A stretch of 13,197 nt of DNA from a virus (Duplodnaviria; Heunggongvirae; Uroviricota; Caudoviricetes): IMG/VR virus record IMGVR_UViG_2703718841_000007; one strand, 5' to 3'. Each line of letters starts with the position of its first letter. Position 1 is the first letter of the stretch. A program made the position numbers and the translations under genes. Positions 1 through 13,197 of this stretch are shown here, piece by piece. The notes beneath the pieces are model-generated. The model ran no database searches, had not been told where the DNA came from, and saw only the letters and a program-made list of their open reading frames with translations.

Positions 1-25
1 TCCTTTATATTGAGTGTATCGCCAA

Positions 26-50
26 CGCGCCTTCGGGCGCGTTTTATTTA
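26..50 (+). terminator. Intrinsic-terminator-like hairpin with T-rich tail
   Basis: Read directly: stem CGCGCC (26-31) / GGCGCG (36-41), TTCG loop (32-35), then TTTTATTTA (42-50). Would end a plus-strand transcript entering from the left. Confidence 0.5.
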
Positions 51-143: not shown

Positions 144-1331
144 ATGCGTGTCAATAAGTCCACAGAGCATTCCCGACATCCGCAAAAAATGTTAACATCC
201 ATAAAAACACCAAGCGTAATTATTATAATGAAATATATTTTTGAATACGGACTTTATCTCAGCATACTTATAGCGACAATATATGTCACTTCTAAGTTAT
301 TGGGTATTACACCTGCAAAACATAAATACGCCTCGCTTGATGGCTTACGTGGAATTTGTGCAGCAATGGTTGCTGTATTCCATCTTTACTGGAGAGCCGG
401 AGGAGAATCAGATATATACTGGTCTCTTGAGTACATTACACTCAGCAATGTAAAACGCGCCATATATCTAACAGGAGAGTTATCTGTTGGGGTCTTTTTT
501 ATGCTGTCTGCTTTTTTATTTTTCAAAAAGGCACTAGCGGACTCCTTCGATGTAAAAAGCTTTGCAATTTCACGATTCATGCGAATTTACCCACCTGTAG
601 TTGTTCTTTTATTTATAATATATATTGCAACATTTATCATGAATCCGGATAACCATACTCCAGTATCGCAATGGTTTATATCTTCATTACCATTTATATT
701 CAATCCGCCTGGCGCTAACATCAATGGTGTATCGCTCCAGATTGCCACATCTGGTGTGTTCTGGACGTTAGTCTGGGAATTACGCCTATACCTTGCAATT
801 CCATTTTTATATCTGATAATGAAAAACATCAAATATAAAGAAGCATTTGTTATTTTTTTAATGGGATGTGTTTTATTATTCAAGTATTTTATAAACAATG
901 AACAACACCTGAGTTATATAATGTATTTCCTTGCAGGATTTCTTGTCGCTACAATCAAGAGCAACAAGCGCCCATCAGATATAATCTGCGCTTTATTATT
1001 ATTCGCAGCCATATATTTTACTCGACATGCTTACAACACTACAACTCCGCTTTATATGTTTATTGTTTTCTACACAATAAAGTGCGGATGTGATTACTTT
1101 GGCTTACTTACATCCCTGCCTGTAACTATGCTGGGAACCTGCAGTTTCTCCCTTTATTTAGTTCATGGGATAACTCAAACAGTATCTAAACATTATTTAT
1201 ATAGTGCAGGAAACTATGTTTGGCAGATTTGTGCAATTATTGCGGCAGGTATCATTGCGCCGGTTATGTACAAATATGTCGAAAGTCGCAGCATCATACA
1301 TAAGCGTCCTCAACTTCAGATTGCAAAGTAG
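144..1331 (+). CDS. Integral membrane acyltransferase, acyltransferase-3 family (OafA/Oac-like O-acetyltransferase type)
   Basis: Long ORF that is highly hydrophobic throughout. Family-typical N-terminal motif YASLDGLRGICAAMVAVFHL and FFMLSAFLFF segment. Strongly AT-rich (one 60-nt line, 601-660, hand-counted at 15 G+C). True start is uncertain: ATGs at 144, 189 and 228, none with a good Shine-Dalgarno. Confidence 0.75.
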   Translation: MRVNKSTEHSRHPQKMLTSIKTPSVIIIMKYIFEYGLYLSILIATIYVTSKLLGITPAKHKYASLDGLRGICAAMVAVFHLYWRAGGESDIYWSLEYITLSNVKRAIYLTGELSVGVFFMLSAFLFFKKALADSFDVKSFAISRFMRIYPPVVVLLFIIYIATFIMNPDNHTPVSQWFISSLPFIFNPPGANINGVSLQIATSGVFWTLVWELRLYLAIPFLYLIMKNIKYKEAFVIFLMGCVLLFKYFINNEQHLSYIMYFLAGFLVATIKSNKRPSDIICALLLFAAIYFTRHAYNTTTPLYMFIVFYTIKCGCDYFGLLTSLPVTMLGTCSFSLYLVHGITQTVSKHYLYSAGNYVWQICAIIAAGIIAPVMYKYVESRSIIHKRPQLQIAK

Positions 1332-1695: not shown

Positions 1696-1943
1696 CCGAT
1701 GCTCCCCCTAAATTTTTGAAAAAATTAGAAGTGGTCAGAAATCACCCTGATTTGTTGGTGGTTTTGTATATATCTCTGTTAGTGATTTGAGCATTGGTGC
1801 AGTACGTTAATGTAGGTACTGCCCCAGCCCGGTGTCCCGCTGTGCCGGGATGAACGCGATCTCGTCCATCTGGCTGTCAAATCCCTGCATTGCCCGTCTG
1901 GGCATGTTCGCAATGAGAAAATCGGTTAATGCCGTTAACTGGC

Positions 1944-2396: not shown

Positions 2397-2489
2397 CCTG
2401 TTTCTCCGGAAAAAAGCGGGCTGGCCGGTTTCCACGGGCGATACGCTTATGCGATCCCCTCCACCGCGCCCGCTTTCGGGTCGGTAGTC

Positions 2490-2681
2490 TTACTCGCCGC
2501 GTTTTGCGGCCTGAATCTCACCTTCTTCAAACCACGCATCAGATGCGCGGCCGTCAGCAGTCTGATAGTGGATCAGATACTGATTGCAGCTGTTGGTGTA
2601 CTCCGCACGGGCTTTGATATGCCCCTCTTCGCCGCTAATGGAAACTTCAACAACCTGGCCTAACTCATGCTTAAACGACAT
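2490..2681 (-). CDS. Hypothetical small protein (63 aa) between the M-like and L-like genes
   Basis: ATG start at 2681 with a GGGAG Shine-Dalgarno 6-7 nt upstream; the start lies 1 nt after the M-like stop (tight coupling). No family recognised. Confidence 0.5.
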   Translation of the reverse strand: MSFKHELGQVVEVSISGEEGHIKARAEYTNSCNQYLIHYQTADGRASDAWFEEGEIQAAKRGE

Positions 2682-2682
2682 A

Positions 2683-3396
2683 TCAAACTCCCGTAGACTC
2701 TTTTTTCAGCGCCCGCAGACGCGCAGCAATACGCTGCAACATCGTGCCAACACCACATTTAGGGTCGAATCCCTTCGCCTGCTCCAGCAGTTCCTTAGCC
2801 CGGAGCAATACTTCCCTGTCTTCCGTTGCCGCTGCGCGTGGCTCTCCGTTTTCATCGCGTAGCAGGTGCAGACCGGCAAACTTCAGGTATTTGGCCTTAA
2901 TGACCTCATACACATTCCAGTGCTGCGTCACGTTTTCCAGCGTACGGCCAAAATACGGCTCCACATCATGCCCCTGTACGGCTTCCGCTTCCGCCCAGGA
3001 CAACACCGTATCCGCCACAAACACCGGGAACGTACTGCCGAACGCGGCCGGGGTTTCCTGCCCCCGCTGGATTGCCATATCCGCCCAGTCCAGCGCCTGG
3101 TCAAACTGGCCTGTATCAAACAGCCAGACGACACACCAGGCAAAAACAGGATTCTGTTGCACACTGTCACCTTCCAGCCAGGATTGCGCGGTTGGCATCC
3201 AGCGCGGTAACAGCACATCACGCTTAAATTCCATTCGCTCAGCGCGGCTTTCAATCGCTGCAGCTGCGGCGACATCTTTCTCCAGCGCGACAATCTGAAT
3301 ATGCAGGCTGGTTTCCGTGTCCAGAGACTGCTGCTGTCGCAGTAACCGCTCCGCTTCAATTCGTGCGCTGTGGCGCTGTGCCGGTGACAGTTGCAT
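2683..3396 (-). CDS. P2 gpM-like terminase small (endonuclease/DNA-recognition) subunit
   Basis: N-terminus MQLSPAQRH..., LLPRWMP and WLFDTGQFDQALDWADMAIQRG segments match my recollection of the gpM family. ATG at 3396 with a strong AGGGGGA Shine-Dalgarno; starts 10 nt after the O-like stop. Confidence 0.7.
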   Translation of the reverse strand: MQLSPAQRHSARIEAERLLRQQQSLDTETSLHIQIVALEKDVAAAAAIESRAERMEFKRDVLLPRWMPTAQSWLEGDSVQQNPVFAWCVVWLFDTGQFDQALDWADMAIQRGQETPAAFGSTFPVFVADTVLSWAEAEAVQGHDVEPYFGRTLENVTQHWNVYEVIKAKYLKFAGLHLLRDENGEPRAAATEDREVLLRAKELLEQAKGFDPKCGVGTMLQRIAARLRALKKESTGV

Positions 3397-3406
3397 TAAA
3401 TCCCCC

Positions 3407-4108
3407 TTACTCGCCTGCCGGAGGCGCGACAGGTGCCCCGATAGCTACCGCTTCTTCCGCCTCACCCAGACGGGTTTCAATAGCAGATACGCGCTTATCA
3501 ATGGCATCCAGCGCTTCAGCCAGCGCCTGTAAGGCATCAGACTGTGAAGGTTCCTGCTCCGGGGTCTGCTCCGGTTCTTCGATACTGAAAAAATGGCGCC
3601 AGCCCTTTTTCGCTGTCTTTGACATTCCCTTTTCCTTTTTAAATTCCCTGACTTCATCAAACGCCAGCGGCTTGTATGGTCCGATGCGTTTTCCCCTGGT
3701 GCGGCTGAAACGTAACCGTGTGGTGCTTACCCCGGCCGGACTGTCAGTAATGGCCAGTCCCTCAAGATAGGTTTTCCCGGTATTTCTGAAATTGCCGTCC
3801 GGTGTAAACTCCGGTGATAAAAATAAAAGCTGACCGTCTGCATTTGCCTGTAGCAATGAAATCGCCGGACAGAGGCGGGCATATAAACGAAGAATACCTT
3901 CATCATCCCGCTCGGCTTTTACTTCCAGCACCTCCCCCATATTCCCGAAATTACGGGAATGTTCCGGCCATAACAGCGCGGTATACAAAGAGGGGTCATA
4001 TAATTCAGCGGCATCAAGCAACCATTGTTCTTCAATAAATCGCTTATCAACCGTTTCACCCGCAGTGGCGATACAAATCCAGTTTGTTGCCAGTTGTGAA
4101 CCTGACAT
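3407..4108 (-). CDS. P2 gpO-like capsid scaffolding protein/protease
   Basis: GKTYLEGLAITDSPAGVSTTRL and a C-terminal coiled-coil-like region (EALDAIDKRVSAIETRLGEAEE) resemble the gpO family. The track ORF starts at GTG 4168, but the ATG at 4108 has a perfect GGAGG 5 nt upstream and is preferred. Shorter than my recollection of P2 gpO (about 284 aa). Confidence 0.7.
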   Translation of the reverse strand: MSGSQLATNWICIATAGETVDKRFIEEQWLLDAAELYDPSLYTALLWPEHSRNFGNMGEVLEVKAERDDEGILRLYARLCPAISLLQANADGQLLFLSPEFTPDGNFRNTGKTYLEGLAITDSPAGVSTTRLRFSRTRGKRIGPYKPLAFDEVREFKKEKGMSKTAKKGWRHFFSIEEPEQTPEQEPSQSDALQALAEALDAIDKRVSAIETRLGEAEEAVAIGAPVAPPAGE

Positions 4109-4251
4109 ATTGCCTCCGTTCATGCTGCGGTTTTCAGTATCGCCAATAAAATTAACCGCCGCATTCACTTCATTTCGGATATAGGCTATTAGCCGAACAC
4201 ATCAGAAATAAAGCGGGATTTAATATACAAACGCCCGTGCATAATGTGTGC

Positions 4252-5496
4252 ATGGCTAAATATTCAGAAGAATTAAAAGGCGTTGCGCGGGCGCTTTATT
4301 TAAAACGCTATACCCCGCAGGAAATTGCCAGCGAACTTAATCTGCCTAACAGACGCATTGTCTATTACTGGGCGGAGAAATATTGCTGGGCGGAATTACT
4401 CAGTCATGAATCCACCGAAGATGCATTAAACCGTCGCATTCAGTCACTGACATTACGTGAAGGGAAATCGGAGCTGGAGCTGCGGGAGCTGGACAGTCTC
4501 GTTTCTCACCTGGTGAAACTACGTGCACAGCACAATAAGCATCAGGAAAAGCTGGCAGAAATTAAACACAGTGAAAATGATGCGCCGGCGCGTCAGTCCG
4601 GTGGCGACGAAAAGCCCCGGAAACGTGGCAAGTACAAAAAGAACGACATCAGCGGACTGACACAGGAAGATTTTGACCGGTTCGCGCTGGAGCACCTTTT
4701 CGGTTACCAGAAACACCTTCGCGCTAATCTTCATCAGCAAATCAGGAACATCCTGAAAAGCCGCCAGATTGGTGCAACCTGGTATTTCTCAATAGAAGCC
4801 TTTGAGAATGCGGTCATGACAGGCGATCCGCAAATCTTCCTGTCCGCATCAAAGGCTCAGGCGGAAGTATTCCGCAGCTATATCGTCAACATTGCGGAGC
4901 AGTATTTCGGCGTGGAGCTGACGGGAAACCCCATCCGCCTCTCCAACGGCGCGGAGATGCGATTCCTGTCCACCAACAAGAACACCGCCCAGTCATACAG
5001 CGGCCATCTGTACTGCGATGAATATTTCTGGGTACCCAACTTTGCAAAATTAAACGAAGTGGCCAGCGCGATGGCCACACACGACAAATGGCGAACCACC
5101 TACTTTTCCACCCCCAGCAGCAAAACGCACCAGGCGTACCCGTTCTGGACTGGTGAAGAATGGAAGCGCGGTGACAAAAAACGCGCGCGCGTACAATTTC
5201 CCACGGAGAAGGAGCTGCGCGACGGTGGACGGTTATGTCCTGATGGGCAGTGGCGCTACATCATCACAATGGAAGACGCGATCGCAGGCGGGTTTAATCT
5301 CGCCAGCATCGGGAAGCTGCGCAACCGCTACAACCGCGACACTTTCAACATGCTGTATATGTGCGTGTTCGTGGACAGCAAGGACAGCGTATTTTCGTTC
5401 TCTCACGTAGAACGCTGCTGTGTAGATCCGGATATGACAATGAAGCGGAACACTGGACGCTCCCGATTGACCGGCTGGCGCTGGCGCAACTGGTGA
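4252..5496 (+). CDS. P2 gpP-like terminase large (ATPase) subunit, C-terminally truncated; probable pseudogene
   Basis: N-terminal HTH-like region, then KSRQIGATWYF (Walker A-like), FLSAS, DEYFWVP (Walker B-like) and YFSTPSS...PFWTGE typical of the gpP family. Family resemblance stops near 5427 (...HVERCCVD) and the ORF ends after a 23-aa unrelated tail. It has about 415 aa against about 590 in P2 gpP (recalled), so the C-terminal nuclease domain is absent. The GTG at 4237 is an alternative start. Confidence 0.65.
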   Translation: MAKYSEELKGVARALYLKRYTPQEIASELNLPNRRIVYYWAEKYCWAELLSHESTEDALNRRIQSLTLREGKSELELRELDSLVSHLVKLRAQHNKHQEKLAEIKHSENDAPARQSGGDEKPRKRGKYKKNDISGLTQEDFDRFALEHLFGYQKHLRANLHQQIRNILKSRQIGATWYFSIEAFENAVMTGDPQIFLSASKAQAEVFRSYIVNIAEQYFGVELTGNPIRLSNGAEMRFLSTNKNTAQSYSGHLYCDEYFWVPNFAKLNEVASAMATHDKWRTTYFSTPSSKTHQAYPFWTGEEWKRGDKKRARVQFPTEKELRDGGRLCPDGQWRYIITMEDAIAGGFNLASIGKLRNRYNRDTFNMLYMCVFVDSKDSVFSFSHVERCCVDPDMTMKRNTGRSRLTGWRWRNW

Positions 5497-6332
5497 ACCT
5501 GAACGCGCAGCACGGCGGTGTGCTGTATGCCCGTCGCAATATGGTGACGGCAAACTATAAAGACGGCGGACTGACGCATGAACAGCTTGGTGCAGCCGTG
5601 TTCGACTGGCTGACCTTCGGTGATGTGGCCATTCTGAAAGTGCGTAACGGCTGGGGGGATGTGGTGGCACTGTACCCGCTGCCGGCACTCTATACCCGCC
5701 AGCGTAAGACCGGGGAGTTTGTGGTACTGCAGCAGGGTGAACCGATGATTTATCCGCCTGAAGATATTATTTTTCTCAGGCAGTACGATCCGCAACAGGC
5801 GATTTATGGTCTGCCGGATTATATCAGCGGTATCCATTCTGCCCTGCTTAACGGTGAGGCAACAATTTTTCGTCGGCGTTACTACCATAACGGCGGACAC
5901 ACAGGTGGCATGATCTACTGTAACGACCCAAATATGACTGATGAAGTGGAAGAAGAAATTATTCAGAAGCTGGAGCAGTCAAAGGGGATCGGGAACTTCA
6001 GCACCATGTTTGTGAACATCCCCAAAGGCGATCCGGACGGCATCAAATTTATCCCGATTGGGGATATCAGCGCCAAAGATGAGTTTCAGAACATCAAGAG
6101 CATCAGCGCCCAGGACGTACTGACCGCGCATCGATTCCCGGCAGGACTGGCGGGGATTATCCCGACGAACGGCGCAGTAATGGGAGATGTTGAGAAAGCG
6201 TCCAAAACCTACCGCAAAGCAGAAATTTTGCCCATTCAGCGCATGTTTACCGCCGCAGTGGAACAGGAAAGTGATGTACCGCCCCACCTGTACCTTAATT
6301 TCCTGAAAGACAGTGAGCTGGAAGGTGATTAA
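5361..6332 (+). CDS. P2 gpQ-like portal protein, N-terminally truncated and out of frame with the upstream P-like ORF; probable pseudogene
   Basis: IYGLPDYISGIHSALLNGEATIFRRRYYHNGGHTGG and the downstream KGIGNF...DGIKFIPIGDISAKDEFQNIKSISAQDVLTAHRFPAGL resemble the gpQ portal family. Resemblance begins about 25-35 residues into this frame-3 ORF, which overlaps the end of the frame-1 P-like ORF. The listed start is a GTG chosen by the ORF caller, not a credible initiation site. Confidence 0.6.
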   Translation: MRVRGQQGQRIFVLSRRTLLCRSGYDNEAEHWTLPIDRLALAQLVNLNAQHGGVLYARRNMVTANYKDGGLTHEQLGAAVFDWLTFGDVAILKVRNGWGDVVALYPLPALYTRQRKTGEFVVLQQGEPMIYPPEDIIFLRQYDPQQAIYGLPDYISGIHSALLNGEATIFRRRYYHNGGHTGGMIYCNDPNMTDEVEEEIIQKLEQSKGIGNFSTMFVNIPKGDPDGIKFIPIGDISAKDEFQNIKSISAQDVLTAHRFPAGLAGIIPTNGAVMGDVEKASKTYRKAEILPIQRMFTAAVEQESDVPPHLYLNFLKDSELEGD

Positions 6333-6385
6333 TGTTCGCAAAAAGGCTAAAATATCATCGTTTTCCAACTTCCGGAGCGATGGAT

Positions 6386-6661
6386 ATGCGGGTAATGAAG
6401 GTTTACTGTCCGGTATGTGAGGCAAGGGCTGTTATCAAAAAAACAGCCCGAAAACACAAGGAACTGTCGGATTTATATTGCGCGTGTACCGATGTTGAAT
6501 GTGGTCACACTTTTGTGATGAATATGACATTCTCACATACCATCAGCCCCAGCGCCAAATCCAGCGATGCGTTGATCGCCACTATCTGTAACAGCCTTGA
6601 TATCCAGCAAAAGCAGCTGATGTTAAAGTTTCTGAGTCAGGACGGCACTGCTGCCGCATAG
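6386..6661 (+). CDS. ogr: Ogr/Delta-family zinc-finger late-gene transcriptional activator
   Basis: Exact C-x2-C-x22-C-x4-C spacing (CPVC...CACTDVEC) as in P2 Ogr. The ATG at 6386 has GGAG 8 nt upstream. The frame is open from the ATG at 6332, which overlaps the portal stop as TAATG; another ATG at 6395 would give an MKVYCPVC N-terminus, closest to Ogr. Confidence 0.8.
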   Translation: MRVMKVYCPVCEARAVIKKTARKHKELSDLYCACTDVECGHTFVMNMTFSHTISPSAKSSDALIATICNSLDIQQKQLMLKFLSQDGTAAA

Positions 6662-6692
6662 AAAAAAGCACCGCTACCGGTGCTTTTATTTT
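6662..6692. terminator. Bidirectional intrinsic terminator
   Basis: A-run 6662-6667, stem GCACCG (6668-6673) / CGGTGC (6678-6683), loop CTAC, T-run TTTTATTTT 6684-6692. Confidence 0.75.
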
Positions 6693-6742
6693 CTGAGATG
6701 TAACAGATTCCCATCTATCAACGTCGATGAATGACCAAGTGA

Positions 6743-6800
6743 TTAATAGTCCCCCCCTCCTAAACATGATATTATCTTTCCAAATTTTGGGAGGCATCTT
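6743..6800 (+). promoter_or_regulatory. Putative promoter and RBS of the glycosyltransferase-like cargo gene (extended -10 TGaTATTAT; C7 tract upstream; GGGAGG Shine-Dalgarno)
   Basis: Read directly: TGATATTAT at 6767-6775 (extended -10-like), C7 homopolymer 6751-6757 where a -35 would lie, GGGAGG 6789-6794 six nt before the ATG at 6801. No confident -35. Confidence 0.35.
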
Positions 6801-7520
6801 ATGTTAATAGTCTCAGTTCTTAAATGTAGTAAAGAGTTTACCCCTAAACACGCCCAATGGCTTCATCGTCAGTTCAAAGATATTCCATCTATATGTTTAA
6901 CCGATGCAGATAATATTCCTGGAGTTAACACAACCCCTTTGCTTTATAACTGGCCGGGATGGTGGTCTAAAATTGAACTATTTAATCCTAATCACCCAGT
7001 CCTTGGAGACCAAGATTTACTCTATTTTGACGTAGATGTTGTGGTCACGGGAGATATTCATATTTTCGAAGGTGCGAAGAAATTTACAATGCTTCGGGAG
7101 TTTAACCATGCCTCAAGAGTAAACTCATCAATAATGATGATTCCGGCGTCGATTAAAAAGACGATTTGGGAACAATTCATTATTGATCCTGAGAAAATTA
7201 TGCGCAATTGTCAGACTGAAGACAAATGGGGTGATCAGGGATTTCTCGGTAGCATCATAAAACCAGCCCTATGGCAGGATATCATTCCTGGCTCAATTGT
7301 TAGTTATAAATGTGACATCGCCACCCCCTCGATGATTGGCTTCAATGCAAATTTAGCCTCTGAGGCTGCGACAGGGAAAGTCCCTGATAATGTGGCGGTT
7401 GTTTGCTTTCATGGCAGTCCACGCCCCTGGCGTACTGGTTTTGATTGGGTTCCTTCGTTTTCCCTGCGGGATACTCTGTACGGTAAATTAAAGAACTTTA
7501 AAATAAGAATGAAGCAATAA
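6801..7520 (+). CDS. GT-A-fold glycosyltransferase-like protein (GT8-like DxD and H-x-G-x-x-[KR]-P-W motifs); accessory/cargo gene
   Basis: LYFDVDVVV (DxD, about residue 75) and CFHGSPRPW (about residue 212) match the two signature motifs of retaining GT8-type transferases (LgtC/WaaJ type), with similar inter-motif spacing. Strong Shine-Dalgarno. AT-rich relative to neighbours (60-nt lines hand-counted: 6841-6900 has 24 G+C, 7141-7200 has 21 G+C). Convergent with the primase gene. Confidence 0.5.
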   Translation: MLIVSVLKCSKEFTPKHAQWLHRQFKDIPSICLTDADNIPGVNTTPLLYNWPGWWSKIELFNPNHPVLGDQDLLYFDVDVVVTGDIHIFEGAKKFTMLREFNHASRVNSSIMMIPASIKKTIWEQFIIDPEKIMRNCQTEDKWGDQGFLGSIIKPALWQDIIPGSIVSYKCDIATPSMIGFNANLASEAATGKVPDNVAVVCFHGSPRPWRTGFDWVPSFSLRDTLYGKLKNFKIRMKQ

Positions 7521-7588
7521 AGATAACGCCCCTATTGCTTCAATGTTCGCTCCTTCCCCTAACAATAAAGTTAGGCACTAGTGAACCG

Positions 7589-10246
7589 TTACTTTTCCCG
7601 GCCAAATATCCAGCAGCGGAATGTTTCCGGCATCCGTTGCATATCCCCTTTACCACGATTATGGCGCTCACTTACCGCGCTGCGCGTGGTGCTTTGTCTG
7701 ATAAACCGGCGCTCATTGCCGTTTTTAAGCAGCTTTTTAATTTCCGTTAACGTGAACGGAATACGCTGCCGGTGTGCTGCGGCGACCTCTTCCATGTGAT
7801 TGAAATTAACCGCGATTTCATTTTCATCTGATGAATGATTGATGCCATAAGGTGCCAGTTCATCCAAGTAATCAAACAGCTCCCAGAACTCCTGCACCAG
7901 AGGATGATCCTTTTTAAGTGCCTGACAACGTTCAACGGCCAGCGCGGTGATGGCTTCACGCGTTTTTTCTATACGTTCAACCGGCACCGGTACAACAAGT
8001 GCAAGCGCCTCCAGCAAGCCCACAAGCTGCGCGTGATTCTTTGCAATACGGATATGGCGAATACTGCTATTAGACTCCAGCTCATTCCTAGCTCGCTCGT
8101 ACCCCCTGCCGAACGTCTGCATGATTTCTTTTTCGCGCATGGTGGCCAGTAATGTGAATCCGGATACCTGGCTAACGGGGAGTTGTTCAAGTCGTTCTGC
8201 AGCGTGGCGCGTCTGAATGGACTGGCCGCGCTTGTCGGTATAGATGTGGATGATACGCTCCAGAAACGCCTTGCTGCCGTCTGTGTCGGCATTTTGCGCT
8301 ATCACAATACTTCCCCTGAACGGCGGCTCATACGTCTCGTTATTGTTCGATTTGATACCCACGGCGCGGGAGGCACGACCGTTATACAGTGATTTCAGCT
8401 CGTCCCAGTCAAAAGCGCGTTGCTTGGCGTTATCGGTAGTACGGTCGCCCTCAATCAGCACAACCGGCAGATTACCGACCTGGGCGAAGTTACGGCCACG
8501 CGCGGCGGCGGTAGATTTAGATGGGTCAAACCCTTCGTATTCCTCACGGCCGGCGAGCTTCCAGAGAAATTCTATCAGCGTGGATTTACCTGTCCCCGGC
8601 TCGCCCACGATTTCCAGAAACGGAAATGACTTGTCACGCTCGCGGATTTGTTCGGCAAACAGCGACCCCAGCCAGAACGCCAGAGCCACATACCCTTTTT
8701 CACCAAATGCCGTCCAGATATCGTCTACCCAACCCGTAGTAAACTCGTTCAGCTTCGGATTCAGATCCAGCGCCGGCGTGAGGCTCAGGCTCTTAACACT
8801 GGCACTGTTGATTTCGAAGTAATCCTCGTCGTTCATCTCATACAGCCGGCCATCGCAAACGGCCACGCGGTTAAACAACCAGGCGGCATAATCCTTGTTA
8901 TAGCCGATGAAATTCTGCGTCTTTACCTCTTTGATTTCAGGGAGGCGCATCTGGATGAACTTATCCAGCTGTTTGGTGCTGCCTGTGTACACCGCCCCTT
9001 TGGCGATGTGCAGCAGACGCTTTTTGAACTCGGCGGAGCTGGTGAGCTGATTAGCCGTGAAAGTATCTTTCACGGCTGGCCGGTTAGGCATACTGACTTT
9101 CACGTAATACCAGGACTCGTCCGTAGGTTCAGACCGCTGAAAGTAAAGCGGCGTCAGCCAGCAGTTAGCTATTTCGGTCACGCCGCCTGACTCTTTAACC
9201 GCCCGTTCTTTGGCCTCCCACTCCATCACCACTTCGGTACCGGTATTGGTGATGCGCTCATAGGCTCGCATATACCTGTCCAGATCCAGCTCAAACCAGT
9301 ACATGCGGGAGTTATGCTCAAAGTAGAACGAGTGCCACTCGTTATGCTGATGCATGAGCAGCGCTTTCTCAGTCGGGCTTTTTGCCAGAAGGAGATCGCC
9401 ATAGTAGCGATAATTTTTAATGTCCGACTTACTGAACCGGTTACGTAACAACAGGTCATTCCAGTCCAGCGATGCCGATGATTTCACCGGCTGCGCGGCA
9501 CGAGTTTTCCATCCTGCAGCATCACTACGGGCAGCGAACGCCAGTGTGTGCTTTGTGCCGGCTTTATCGCCGTCAAACGCCCATACAAGACGTGGACGTG
9601 GTTTTTCACCCAGTTCTTTGGCCAGCGTATCCAGTGCGGCCAGCGGATAGTTGTTACTGCTCAGTGTGGCAACTGCAGGTAACCCTGCCTGGCACAGACT
9701 CAGCGCGTTGAAGATTCCCTCAGTGATCCAGATTTCGTTCACTTCCTGCAGGTTGATAAAGGGAGGAACCCACCAGTGACCGACATAGCTTCCCCTGATG
9801 TTGGCTTTCTGCTTACCGAAGCGCTGCGGCTGGTCAATGATGCGCTCCCATGTTGCACCGCATGACAGCGAAAATCTGACCGTTGCCGACCCCATGCCAT
9901 CTTTCACGAATGCACCCTGGGTAAAACAGCCTTTTAATGGCTCAGTCTCCAGCCCTCTGGCCTCGCGCAGATACGCCTCAGCTACTGCATGGGGGTTATC
10001 TTCTGTGGTCTGGTAACGTTTTGACCAGTCTTCAAAGATATCCGGATACAGCTCTTTCACGACAATCTGATGTGCGCAGTTATTTTCACGGCCACATTTC
10101 AGAATCCAGGGCTTTTCTATGCTGGTAAATAATTCGCGCTTACGACAGGCAGGGCAAACGCCCTGCTGCAAATACTTATCCCGCTCTTTAAATTCAAAGT
10201 CCCGAACAAGACGGCGCACAACGTCCTGTTGTATCGTTTCGTTCAT
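7589..10246 (-). CDS. P4-alpha-type bifunctional DNA primase/helicase (zinc-binding plus TOPRIM primase, P-loop helicase, C-terminal domain)
   Basis: CPACRK...CGRENNC zinc motif; TOPRIM-like ITEGIFNALSL and WAFDGDKAG; Walker A IVGEPGTGKST. One 60-nt line (8461-8520) hand-counted at 38 G+C. The ORF is open from TTG 10282; the first ATG is 10246; neither has a good Shine-Dalgarno. This is not a P2 A-type rolling-circle initiator. Confidence 0.8.
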   Translation of the reverse strand: MNETIQQDVVRRLVRDFEFKERDKYLQQGVCPACRKRELFTSIEKPWILKCGRENNCAHQIVVKELYPDIFEDWSKRYQTTEDNPHAVAEAYLREARGLETEPLKGCFTQGAFVKDGMGSATVRFSLSCGATWERIIDQPQRFGKQKANIRGSYVGHWWVPPFINLQEVNEIWITEGIFNALSLCQAGLPAVATLSSNNYPLAALDTLAKELGEKPRPRLVWAFDGDKAGTKHTLAFAARSDAAGWKTRAAQPVKSSASLDWNDLLLRNRFSKSDIKNYRYYGDLLLAKSPTEKALLMHQHNEWHSFYFEHNSRMYWFELDLDRYMRAYERITNTGTEVVMEWEAKERAVKESGGVTEIANCWLTPLYFQRSEPTDESWYYVKVSMPNRPAVKDTFTANQLTSSAEFKKRLLHIAKGAVYTGSTKQLDKFIQMRLPEIKEVKTQNFIGYNKDYAAWLFNRVAVCDGRLYEMNDEDYFEINSASVKSLSLTPALDLNPKLNEFTTGWVDDIWTAFGEKGYVALAFWLGSLFAEQIRERDKSFPFLEIVGEPGTGKSTLIEFLWKLAGREEYEGFDPSKSTAAARGRNFAQVGNLPVVLIEGDRTTDNAKQRAFDWDELKSLYNGRASRAVGIKSNNNETYEPPFRGSIVIAQNADTDGSKAFLERIIHIYTDKRGQSIQTRHAAERLEQLPVSQVSGFTLLATMREKEIMQTFGRGYERARNELESNSSIRHIRIAKNHAQLVGLLEALALVVPVPVERIEKTREAITALAVERCQALKKDHPLVQEFWELFDYLDELAPYGINHSSDENEIAVNFNHMEEVAAAHRQRIPFTLTEIKKLLKNGNERRFIRQSTTRSAVSERHNRGKGDMQRMPETFRCWIFGREK

Positions 10247-10285
10247 AAATAATCCAGATGTGAAATAATGGGTAAAAGGCAAAAA

Positions 10286-10504
10286 CTATATTCTGTACTG
10301 CTTGTTATATCGCTCATGTGTCATTAGTTCCCAGCTTCTGCCCTTATCCTTACTCAGTAATCGCCAGCGATAAGAAACATAAACAGAGAAATAATGTTTT
10401 GGCTTAATAACCTGATATACCTTTTTGCCGTTGTAATATTCTGTCAGCACTGAAAATGCCTTGTGAATGACACTTTCACTTGCATGAGAGGTCACTGTAA
10501 GCAT
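10286..10504 (-). CDS. Hypothetical protein (72 aa), AT-rich
   Basis: ATG start 2 nt after the exonuclease stop; ends 3 nt before the primase ORF. No family recognised. Lys/Tyr/Arg-rich. Confidence 0.45.
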   Translation of the reverse strand: MLTVTSHASESVIHKAFSVLTEYYNGKKVYQVIKPKHYFSVYVSYRWRLLSKDKGRSWELMTHERYNKQYRI

Positions 10505-10506
10505 CG

Positions 10507-11076
10507 TTATTTCACACTGGCTATTTTTACAAGATACATCCAGACATAAGAAACAACTTTAGCCTGATGAATGGCATCATATAAAGCGTGATGTTTAACA
10601 CCATCAAACTTAATAATATTACGAACATTCAGCCCAAGTGTTTTTGACAGTTCAACAACCGTTCTTACATCACGGTCATTCCAGTAGTACCAAAGTGGAT
10701 CGGCAAACCCGCATTTCTCTGATGCATTACGTAAAATAACATTGTCGAACGCTGCACTATTCCCCCATACCTGTACTTTAGATGGGTCAGAATGCTCAGT
10801 AATAAAAGCTTCCAGATTAGCTAACGTCAGAGGCAAGTCCAGACAATCGTCATTAAGCAGCTCGCTACGCGCTTCGGCATCCTGACGCATCCACCATAAT
10901 ACGGTTTCTGACCCCATAGTGAGACCGTGGCCTACACAGCTGCCCAGGCTGACACGTTGATAAAACTGTTCACCCATTTCGCCAGTTTCAGGGTCAAAGA
11001 ATACAGCACCGATAGAAGCAATCGCAGAAGTCGGTTTATTATCCATTGTTTCAAGGTCAATCATTAAATGTTTCAT
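10507..11076 (-). CDS. DEDDh-type 3'-5' exonuclease (DnaQ/RNase T-like fold)
   Basis: Exo I MIDLET (D-x-E), Exo II WGNSAAFD, Exo III HHALYD (H-x4-D). AAGGA Shine-Dalgarno 8 nt upstream of the ATG. AT-rich (line 10561-10620 hand-counted at 19 G+C). Confidence 0.7.
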   Translation of the reverse strand: MKHLMIDLETMDNKPTSAIASIGAVFFDPETGEMGEQFYQRVSLGSCVGHGLTMGSETVLWWMRQDAEARSELLNDDCLDLPLTLANLEAFITEHSDPSKVQVWGNSAAFDNVILRNASEKCGFADPLWYYWNDRDVRTVVELSKTLGLNVRNIIKFDGVKHHALYDAIHQAKVVSYVWMYLVKIASVK

Positions 11077-11085
11077 ATCGGTTCC

Positions 11086-11421
11086 TTAACGTTGGGAAGC
11101 TGCAACAGATTTAAGATGCGAGTTATTACTTTTTAACGCTGTGGTAGCCAGCGACATAAGACCGGAAATGTTATTTTCAGTTGGTATATTTCCGCCAAAT
11201 ACCATAAGCGTGATTTTGTGCAGTTCTTCAAAATCATCACTATCATTATTAAAGCGAGCAGTGGAGGTTATACCCTCAAGGCATTTTGCAAGCTGAATGT
11301 TTAATTCCATTAACTGCAAGCCATCGCTATGTACAGAGAATGTTTCTTTATCAATGGTTTTTGCCTGAGCGTGATAGTTTTGCAACAGACTACGAATCAG
11401 CGTGGCATATTTAGTCTTCAT
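11086..11421 (-). CDS. Hypothetical protein (about 111 aa), AT-rich
   Basis: The ORF is open from TTG 11433; the ATG at 11421 has a GGGGA Shine-Dalgarno 7 nt upstream. Its stop is 9 nt before the exonuclease start. No family recognised. Confidence 0.45.
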   Translation of the reverse strand: MKTKYATLIRSLLQNYHAQAKTIDKETFSVHSDGLQLMELNIQLAKCLEGITSTARFNNDSDDFEELHKITLMVFGGNIPTENNISGLMSLATTALKSNNSHLKSVAASQR

Positions 11422-11447
11422 GATAATCCCCAATAATATTTAGTTTA

Positions 11448-11729
11448 CTAACGAGCACTTTTATCTTTCGTGAATAAACGGTTCTTCCAGTCATGCCATT
11501 CAGGCGGGGCAATTTGAGCCAAATGAATGGCATAAGCATCCCATTCCCCCCGATGGATATAGATTTCCCCACCTTTTTTTGATGGATTTAGAGGGTCTTT
11601 CATGCGGATTACCGGCAGTTTTCCAGCCGTGGCCATTTTGCGAATTGCAGCAGGCGTTTTGCCTATATATTCGGCAAAAAGCTCAGGGGTCACCAACTCT
11701 GAAAGCGCCTTTTCTGCTGGTTCCTTCAT
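11448..11729 (-). CDS. cox: P2 Cox-like excisionase/switch repressor
   Basis: 93 aa with AGKLPVIRMKDP, corresponding to the KLPVIDM region of P2 Cox as I recall it. It is transcribed divergently from the C-like repressor and is the first gene of the early operon, as in P2. Confidence 0.7.
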   Translation of the reverse strand: MKEPAEKALSELVTPELFAEYIGKTPAAIRKMATAGKLPVIRMKDPLNPSKKGGEIYIHRGEWDAYAIHLAQIAPPEWHDWKNRLFTKDKSAR

Positions 11730-11837
11730 CTGTGGTATCCTTCGTTAGTTTGGGTTCCTAGGGCGCTTTAAGTCGTTCTAGGGTTCTTTTGTCAAGGTTC
11801 TTTTGTAAGAACCAATAATAGTTGCGATACAAGAACC
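11730..11837. promoter_or_regulatory. Immunity-switch intergenic region with operator-like repeats between cox and the C-type repressor
   Basis: Read directly: GGTTCTT at 11782-11788 and 11796-11802; perfect inverted repeat GGTTCTT-TTGT-AAGAACC at 11796-11813; a further AAGAACC at 11831-11837 abutting the C start codon; direct repeat GTTC(C)TAGGG at 11753-11763 and 11775-11783. Confidence 0.6.
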
Positions 11838-12137
11838 ATGTCAAGAAATTATGCGGAGAAACTCCGGCAGATCCGGAAAGCTGAAGGGTTAACTCAAAAA
11901 GATTTTTCAGAGCTTACTGGGGTAGCTCTTGGAACAATAAAAAAGTACGAAACTGGCCATCAGCCAGCTCGTGCAGAAGTCTTAGAAAGTGTTATAGAGG
12001 TACATATGTTTGAAAAATATACACTCTGGTTAATGACAGATAAGACGGCACCAATTGCGGGGCAGGTGTCCCCGTCTCTCTCCCCTGATGGGCAAGACAA
12101 CATAACATCATCCCGTTCCACCCGGAAAATTGGCTAA
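11838..12137 (+). CDS. P2 C-type immunity repressor (small XRE-family HTH protein)
   Basis: 99 aa, the same length as P2 C. HTH LTQKDFSELTGVALGTIKKYETG and the KYTLWLMTDKTAPIAGQVSP segment match my recollection of P2 C (KYTLWFMT...). Lies upstream of and co-directional with int, as in P2. Confidence 0.8.
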   Translation: MSRNYAEKLRQIRKAEGLTQKDFSELTGVALGTIKKYETGHQPARAEVLESVIEVHMFEKYTLWLMTDKTAPIAGQVSPSLSPDGQDNITSSRSTRKIG

Positions 12138-12203
12138 ACATCTGGTTTTTCTATGCGTTAGCGCAAAATTTACATAATGATTCATACATCGGAGGGCTTC
12201 GCT

Positions 12204-12464
12204 ATGTCGATTAAGAAGCTTGATGATGGTCGTTTTGAAGTGGACGTTAGACCGCGCGGAACCTCAGGAAGAAGGATTCGACGCAAATTTGACAGAAAGG
12301 CGGAAGCACAGGCATACGAGCGGTATGTACTGACAAACTTTCACGATAAAGAATGGCAGGATAAACCCGCAGACAGGAGGCTTGTATCCGAGTTAATTTC
12401 TTTATGGTGGAGCTACCATGGAAAGAATCACAACTATGGTGACTCATATAAAAAGCGTTTGGAA
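12204..12464 (+). pseudogene. int: Tyrosine integrase, N-terminal arm-binding domain fragment (frame 3), separated from the catalytic part by a +1 frameshift
   Basis: MSIKKLDDGRFEVDVRPRGTSGRRIRRKFDRKAEAQAYERY is a typical phage integrase N-terminal domain. GGAGGG Shine-Dalgarno 7 nt before the ATG at 12204. The reading frame switches inside the A7 run at 12463-12469. Confidence 0.65.
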
Positions 12465-13197
12465 AAAAATCAACCGAGAAATGGCGGAACCCAGAGTGTA
12501 CGAGCTTACCCGCAACTTTCTGATGAAATATCGTGCAGAACGACTTCATAGTGGAGTATCTGCTGGCACGGTAAACAGGGATTTCTGTTCCATGTCCAGC
12601 ATGTTCAGTTTGCTGATAGATATGGAAGAATTTCATCACGAAAACCCGTTTCGCGCCGTGAAGAAGTTACGTCTGGAAAACACAGAAATGTCATTTCTGT
12701 CCGAAGAAGAGATCCACCATTTGCTGAATGCCCTTACAGGGGATGATCGCAGAGTTGTCGTTCTTTGCCTGAATACAGGAGCACGATGGGGTGAAGCCAG
12801 TAATCTTAAAGCTGAAAACGTGATAAGTAACCGTGTGACCTTTGTTAAGACCAAAACCGGCCCAGCTCGTACTGTTCCGATATCGAAGGAAATCGCGGAC
12901 TACATCCTTACACGCAAATCGGGGAAATTGTTCGATACCAACTATGAGCGAGTTCGCGATGTTCTTCGTAAGATTAAGCCAGACTTGCCGAAAGGTCAGG
13001 CACTGCATGTTTTACGCCATACCTTCGCAACACATTTCATGATCAACGGCGGGAATATCATCACGCTACAGCGTATTTTGGGTCATACAACAATCGAGCA
13101 AACAATGACATATGCTCACTTCGCCCCAGATTATCTGACTGATGCCATACGATTTAACCCTATGCGTGGGAGTGTCCACATAATGTCCACCGACTAG
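12418..13197 (+). CDS. int: Tyrosine integrase, core-binding and catalytic domains (frame 1); C-terminal part of the frameshifted int
   Basis: Catalytic signatures TGARWGEA (box I Arg) and HVLRHTFATHFMINGGNIITLQRILGHTTIEQTMTYAHF (H-x-x-R and Tyr region). The stop codon is the last three bases of the window. The ORF's own ATG at 12418 is internal to the gene. Confidence 0.85.
   Translation: MERITTMVTHIKSVWKKINREMAEPRVYELTRNFLMKYRAERLHSGVSAGTVNRDFCSMSSMFSLLIDMEEFHHENPFRAVKKLRLENTEMSFLSEEEIHHLLNALTGDDRRVVVLCLNTGARWGEASNLKAENVISNRVTFVKTKTGPARTVPISKEIADYILTRKSGKLFDTNYERVRDVLRKIKPDLPKGQALHVLRHTFATHFMINGGNIITLQRILGHTTIEQTMTYAHFAPDYLTDAIRFNPMRGSVHIMSTD

Follow-up and report, generated by a model that had tools for sequence, protein, structure and literature searches.

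The question raised by this locus is why the gene for a phage integrase is read in two different frames, and whether the split is an error in the sequence, a frameshift that the element uses, or a mutation that has inactivated the gene. The stretch of DNA that we analyzed (the window) is 13,197 nucleotides long, and the integrase gene (int) lies at its end. The reading frame of int moves from frame 3, beginning at ATG 12204, to frame 1, ending with the stop codon at 13197, at a run of seven A's (A7). Direct reading of the sequence from 12460 to 12470 gave tgg-aaaaaaa-t, which places the run exactly at 12463-12469. The sequence and the list of open reading frames (ORFs) both agreed with the original prediction that this run splits the integrase, with the N-terminal part in frame 3 and the rest in frame 1. 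Removal of one A gave a continuous protein of 330 amino acids (...KKRLEKINREMAEPRVYELT...), bearing out the further claim that the repaired integrase would be of normal length. The repaired translation was the same at every residue as WP_000023380.1, a protein annotated as 'tyrosine-type recombinase/integrase' and encoded at the same locus in E. coli 2018-18.25PC. The extra A was the only difference from the allele with six A's (A6) across 1048 nt.

A run of this length is by itself not a signal, and we rejected it as such: there were six A7/T7 runs in the window compared to 5.7 expected from shuffled sequences. We count the observation as real because the frame break coincides with the run and the run holds the sole difference from the intact allele. 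In the ORF list, the frame-3 ORF spans 12177 to 12551, and ATG 12204 is the biologically sensible start within it. The frame-1 ORF encodes what remains of the core-binding domain, followed by the entire catalytic domain. Because this 259-amino-acid ORF needs the extra base to exist, it is diagnostic of the A7 allele. The exact sequences of both products are on deposit, the 115-amino-acid frame-3 sequence as BEB22740.1 and the 259-amino-acid sequence as KJJ75813.1. The coordinates of these and the other features of the window are listed in the table.

Features of the window, with positions counted from its first nucleotide
Feature	Position	Strand	Comment
Left att core, aacgcgccttcgggcgcgtttt	24..45	+	Intrinsic terminator of raiA/RaiZ; from alignment with the empty K-12 site
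Acyltransferase-family (Acyl_transf_3) cargo gene	144-1331		Far end of the prophage
Junction of ~13.9 kb deletion	1815..1818		Tail, baseplate, tape-measure and lysis genes lost; flanking alignments overlap by 4 bp
Junction of ~1.2 kb deletion	3443..3451		Major capsid gene and end of scaffold gene lost; 9-bp overlap
Junction of 714-bp deletion	5433..5435		3' end of large terminase and 5' end of portal gene lost; 3-bp overlap
952-bp segment of toprim gene	9087-10038		Absent from PSJ-12, 23CRST024 and most A7 SRA-run assemblies
ParE-like ORF, 72 aa	10286-10504	-	ParE_like PF24732 in some annotations; 'hypothetical' or uncalled elsewhere
Cox-family excisionase/regulator	11448..11729	-	Intact; PF10743 Phage_Cox; phrog_272
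HTH repressor, in the position of P2 C	11838..12137	+	phrog_147 transcriptional regulator; HTH_31/HTH_3; directly upstream of int
int pseudogene, P2-type tyrosine integrase	12204..13197	+	994 nt (intact gene 993 nt, 330 aa); PGAP 'frameshifted'
Truncated frame-3 product, 115 aa	12204..12551	+	88 native residues, then 27 out of frame; TAG at 12549-12551
Opposite-strand ORF, 130 aa	12247-12639	antisense	Wholly within conserved integrase coding sequence
Frame-1 ORF, 259 aa	12418..13197	+	First ~17 residues out of frame; native integrase from 12470 on
A7 homopolymer	12463..12469	+	A6 (GAA AAA ATC, E-K-I) in intact allele; the additional A causes the frameshift

The repaired protein had the domains of a tyrosine integrase. 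Pfam searches identified a core-binding domain (Int_N, PF24624) at residues 57-156 (E = 4.7e-28) and a catalytic domain (Phage_integrase, PF00589) at residues 164-307 (E = 8.3e-20), and the protein matched the phrog_1 integrase family with E = 1.6e-79. Residues 1-56 matched no Pfam family, even at E ≤ 10; they were covered by a tblastn match to P2 Int and by phrog_11531. From the 57% identity of the protein to P2 Int, we give these residues a putative arm-binding role. In the alignment with PDB 5c6k, identical residues were found at all the catalytic positions: R (GARWGEA), K (VKTKT), HxxR (HVLRH), H (LGHT) and Y (TYAHF). As a separate observation, chain 14 of PDB 9i5v (401 residues) matched the catalytic region of the integrase (E = 7e-9), and its label, 'Ribosome-associated translation inhibitor RaiA', is unexpected for a sequence resembling a tyrosine recombinase.

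The break comes after residue 88 and falls within the core-binding domain, of which the first third is kept; the frame-3 product retains just positions 1-32 of the 100 in the Int_N profile, and all five catalytic motifs sit in the frame-1 part. In the original prediction, the arm-binding N-terminal domain was placed in frame 3 and the catalytic domain in frame 1. The N-terminal region is indeed in frame 3 and the whole catalytic domain in frame 1, but the break itself lies within the domain between them. The core-binding and catalytic domains, the catalytic residues, the location beside an attachment site with a duplicated core, and the gene order were all those of a P2-type integrase, but the reading frame was interrupted. 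The int gene in the window is thus a pseudogene of the P2-type tyrosine integrase family and not a functional member of it.

We determined the distribution of the two alleles by comparing the integrase region, using megablast, with 5,426 complete E. coli genomes. There were 22 near-identical copies. The match extended over 1048 of 1048 nt in two strains isolated from human faeces in Ecuador, PSJ-12 and 23CRST024, and 15 complete genomes had a 1047-nt match at 99.9% identity, that is, with a single gap that implies A6. Direct reading of the tract gave A7 in PSJ-12 and 23CRST024, and A6 in 2018-18.25PC, HZ13, PK5, E89 and BY63. In both of the RefSeq complete A7 genomes (PSJ-12 and 23CRST024), PGAP had annotated the gene as a pseudogene, 'phage integrase, frameshifted'. 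In an exact-sequence look-up, the diagnostic 259-amino-acid ORF was indexed in 27 blocks of the public collection, compared to 1050 blocks for the intact 330-amino-acid protein, which always adjoined pheL/pheA in the places examined. The 24 contigs carrying the 259-amino-acid ORF that we read came from Logan assemblies of separate SRA runs (>20), from GCA_000954045.1, and from one ENA gut metagenome. A7 was present in four of the four loci retrieved (L009-L012), and contig JYHP01000041.1 of GCA_000954045.1 was 100% identical to positions 2418-13197 of the window (10,780 nt fetched) and probably represents either the origin of the window or a sister isolate. All other members of the integrase cluster that we saw were uninterrupted and 330-339 amino acids long. 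This is the comparison with orthologous integrases that had been proposed as a check.

These results bear on the possibility, raised in the original prediction, that A7 is a sequencing or assembly error and that the genome is truly A6 with an intact integrase. Errors in homopolymer length are common, the carriers of A7 are close kin, and a systematic homopolymer error could in principle recur between assemblies. However, the same pipelines give A6 in hundreds of other genomes, and A7 was found in at least 24 independently assembled contigs from varied projects and sources (complete genomes, WGS, SRA runs and a metagenome). In addition, A7 co-segregated perfectly with one deletion architecture, and random errors would not follow phylogeny. 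An artefact is expected not to be reproducible across independent data sets; in this assembly-level comparison, A7 was reproduced by many independent assemblies. Because A7 recurs across independent assemblies and co-segregates with one architecture, inheritance is favoured over random homopolymer error, and we consider an artefact extremely improbable. At the level of assembled sequence, the data favour a genuine inherited mutation. This is the other of the two readings first proposed, an inactivating mutation, and it is the one that accounts for A7 in the two complete genomes, in GCA_000954045.1, in more than 20 SRA-run assemblies and in the metagenome.

The carriers of A7 appear to have a single origin. 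Every A7 contig examined had the same remnant architecture, including a 233-amino-acid scaffold fragment and a 414-amino-acid terminase fragment, and the chromosomal flanks of the carriers differed by 0-2 SNPs per 10 kb. Among the complete genomes and the 26 intact-allele contigs that we read, we found neither A6 in the deletion architecture of the window nor A7 in an intact prophage or any other architecture. The carriers fell into two branches. One includes the window and GCA_000954045.1, in which the toprim gene is intact (885 amino acids). The other, which includes PSJ-12, 23CRST024 and most of the SRA-run assemblies, has an additional 952-bp deletion in the toprim gene, and this deletion marks a younger sub-lineage. 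The existence of two sub-lineages means that the A7 carriers are distinct genomes related by descent. The distribution of the sequences points to one mutational event for A7, followed by clonal descent. A7 and the deletion architecture always occurred together in this set, which is compatible with either order of the frameshift and the deletions.

There was another lesion near the integrase in these strains. The diguanylate cyclase gene dgcN (yfiN) lies outside the window, ~5 kb downstream of the integrase (19996-21222 of the extended locus, L001). An internal stop is annotated in dgcN in both complete A7 genomes, two fragments are called in two SRA-run assemblies, and GCA_000954045.1 has no call for the gene. 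The A6 strain 2018-18.25PC has an intact dgcN, as do most of the other A6 genomes examined, whereas HZ13 and BY63 carry other lesions that break it. The broken dgcN looks like a further marker of the A7 clone.

The element that carries int can be recognized from its intact counterpart. In 2018-18.25PC, the integrase terminates a P2-like prophage of ~29 kb. The prophage has a C-like HTH repressor gene and int, with a divergent cox, followed by genes for a 3'-5' exonuclease, a ParE-like ORF and a toprim-domain replication protein, and then ogr. These are followed by the genes for portal, terminase, scaffold, capsid and head completion, by the tail and lysis genes, and by an acyltransferase cargo gene. 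Comparison with the empty site in K-12 placed the prophage a short distance upstream of pheL, within the intrinsic terminator of raiA; in the K-12 annotation, this terminator also forms the 3' end of the RaiZ sRNA. The empty site aligned to both flanks with a 22-bp overlap, which is the duplicated core. The right copy of the core has one mismatch and is located ~80-110 bp past the end of the window (L001 from ~15132), between the int stop codon and pheL. At the left junction, integration rebuilds a terminator-like hairpin and T-run; in the core copy before pheL there is one mismatch in the stem.

Deletions were called by comparison with the intact prophage of 2018-18.25PC (L008). In total, about 15.8 kb has been lost from the window relative to that prophage, and PGAP labels the terminase 'incomplete'. 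The short overlaps at the three junctions (4, 9 and 3 bp) are consistent with microhomology-mediated deletion. The deletions have left the window with fused or truncated ORFs for the terminase (4237-5496) and the portal (5361-6332). The element is unable to make virions, whatever the state of int. Its two att cores are still there, along with cox, ogr and the genes for the repressor and the toprim replication protein. It had been suggested that loss of the integrase would lock the element in the chromosome. This effect is largely moot, since the prophage is already without ~15.8 kb of tail, lysis, capsid and packaging genes.

There were three other observations on the remnant. A second one-base length difference from 2018-18.25PC, an extra A in GTGAAATAA at position 10263 of the window, falls in the short interval that separates the ParE-like ORF from the start annotated for the toprim gene. 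We saw no clear antitoxin partner for the ParE-like ORF. All of the decay variants examined have kept the acyltransferase cargo gene, which is called shorter in 2018-18.25PC and may be what the host gains from the island.

The same prophage has decayed independently in other lineages. PK5 has a different large deletion and an intact int. HZ13 has an ISKpn26-associated deletion together with a change from a tryptophan codon to a stop in int, and E89 has a different deletion and IS100 within int. In BY63, BY68 and I3, an IS1-associated deletion takes the 5' end of int. Yet another deletion of the prophage was found in one further locus (L023), and SRA-run assemblies contained additional truncated or frameshifted N-terminal variants of the integrase (P0002-P0004). 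Inactivation of int at the raiA-pheL locus is therefore recurrent and takes many forms. Because int has been broken repeatedly and in many different ways, this pattern is the signature of neutral or mildly favoured decay, and not of a designed frameshift.

The same comparison is relevant to whether the pieces of int have acquired a new function, for example if the 115-amino-acid N-terminal fragment acted as an arm-site regulator or interfered in a dominant-negative way with related phages entering the cell. The native start of the N-terminal ORF is preserved, with a Shine-Dalgarno sequence (GGAGGG) 7 nt upstream of ATG 12204, and the ORF lies behind the repressor gene; the frame-1 ORF has GGAG 5 nt upstream of ATG 12418. 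Selection for such a function is unsupported, however. The allele occurs in a single young clone, whose flanks differ by 0-2 SNPs per 10 kb, and other lineages have destroyed int without preserving fragments of this kind. We regard a new function for the fragments as highly improbable.

We also considered whether a useful full-length integrase might still be made, by transcriptional slippage on A7 or by a +1 ribosomal shift of tRNA-Lys from AAA to AAA. Re-pairing of tRNA-Lys in the +1 direction on GAA AAA AAT would regenerate the native ...LEKINREM... exactly, and low-level restoration of the frame by slippage is compatible with the sequence. Slippage is known to occur at runs of A or T, and it rescues some frameshifted genes (PMC1088944). 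However, the frameshift is absent from relatives, the other family members seen being uninterrupted, and the E-K-I motif at the run is not conserved in P2 Int. The run is also only 7 nt long compared to ~9 nt; in a large share of the bacteria whose genomes were analyzed, selection against slippage was found from about 9 nt (PMC1088944). Rescue at the level of mRNA would need deletion of one A or insertion of two, which is the unfavoured direction: transcriptional slippage in A/T runs of E. coli yields insertions, and <1% of deletions start in homopolymers (PMC5574713). The structural genes of the prophage are gone, and there is little left to select for.

The sequence around the run is similarly unsuited to recoding on the ribosome. 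The heptamer A_AAA_AAT is a classical -1 motif and leads to the wrong frame, and -1 programmed ribosomal frameshifting was rejected on this ground. Some +1 frameshifts are stimulated by a pause at a stop codon; the codon after the run is AAT and not a stop. A programmed frameshift is expected to be conserved among homologues and to have a slippery sequence suited to its direction and efficiency, and neither was found here. Conservation, run length and direction also led us to reject a +1 shift or transcriptional slippage as the main explanation, and recoding that yields useful integrase appears very unlikely. The suggestion that the mutation is slippage-prone was not upheld either: the run is short, the frameshift is not conserved, and the direction required is unfavoured.

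Changes in homopolymer length are reversible in principle, and the att cores, cox and repressor are intact. It is conceivable on these grounds that the tract toggles between A6 and A7 by slipped-strand mispairing, turning excision on and off within the population. Known contingency tracts are usually longer. A7 was found in one clonal architecture only, with no revertant among the genomes and contigs examined, which suggests one event and not a switch, and the remnant cannot form particles. Recurrent independent changes in length across the phylogeny, which characterize contingency loci, were not seen among the genomes examined. We judge a phase-variable switch to be most improbable. There is similarly slight likelihood that the tract switches reversibly, or is leaky for +1 recoding, and allows the remnant to be excised occasionally and to move in the manner of a satellite with the help of a related P2-like phage.

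The explanation that we prefer is a single inherited homopolymer insertion that has left int a pseudogene in a decaying P2-like prophage, and we assign it a probability of roughly 90%. The extra A would have arisen in the natural A6 run (GAA AAA ATC) of int, most simply by replication slippage. The insertion probably occurred once, in one E. coli lineage, and would have been inherited since. Translation from ATG 12204 departs from the native frame after residue 88 and stops at 12549-12551. The predicted 115-amino-acid fragment has none of the catalytic domain and lacks the greater part of the core-binding domain, and it would provide no functional integrase; recombination activity has presumably been lost. 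The pseudogene belongs to a prophage that is decaying by deletion, with its tail, lysis and capsid genes and part of the terminase and portal genes gone, and in which there is probably no selection to keep int. The finding that weighs against full inactivation is that the excision machinery is otherwise preserved, with cox, the repressor and the two att cores all intact.

The consequences are mainly for annotation. The int gene in the window should be annotated as one frameshifted pseudogene and not as two genes, and the raiA-pheL island as an immobile, defective P2-like prophage remnant. The locus provides a small example of stepwise decay of a prophage, which several E. coli lineages have disabled through a nonsense mutation, a homopolymer indel, insertion of IS100, IS1 and various deletions. 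Prophage decay of this kind is ordinary: the A7 allele is already flagged as a pseudogene in public genomes, and the phenomenon is well known. That one prophage at one site should be disabled independently is to be expected and has been well documented, and the case has little importance beyond annotation.

Comparison with known systems leads to the same reading. The closest relative is WP_000023380.1, from E. coli and other Enterobacteriaceae, which shares all 330 residues once one A is removed and is found at the same chromosomal site. It differs in having A6 instead of A7 and in usually being part of a complete ~29 kb prophage. The repaired integrase also resembles P2 Int, with 57% identity across residues 1-322 and the same Int_N and Phage_integrase architecture; PDB 5c6k, which together with 5dor we take to be a structure of P2 Int, matches residues 47-325 with E = 4e-97. 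As in P2, the repressor gene is followed by int towards att, with cox divergent. In contrast to P2, the attachment site here is the raiA terminator upstream of pheL, the replication gene encodes a large protein annotated as having a toprim domain, and the integrase gene is broken by one additional A.

Genes with slippage or programmed frameshifts at A runs, such as those of IS elements, dnaX and mxiE, are similar in that the frame changes within a run of A's. Unlike these, the frameshift in the window is not conserved, the run is shorter than their typical ~9 nt, and the direction required is unfavoured. The element also resembles the defective ('grounded') prophages of enterobacteria, in which independent deletions and inactivations of int are likewise found at one locus in different strains, and some cargo and regulatory genes are kept. 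Such prophages decay by deletion, IS insertion and point mutation, and the general concept is treated in a published review (PMC6379469). There is nothing distinctive in the element described here, and it is a textbook instance of a grounded prophage.
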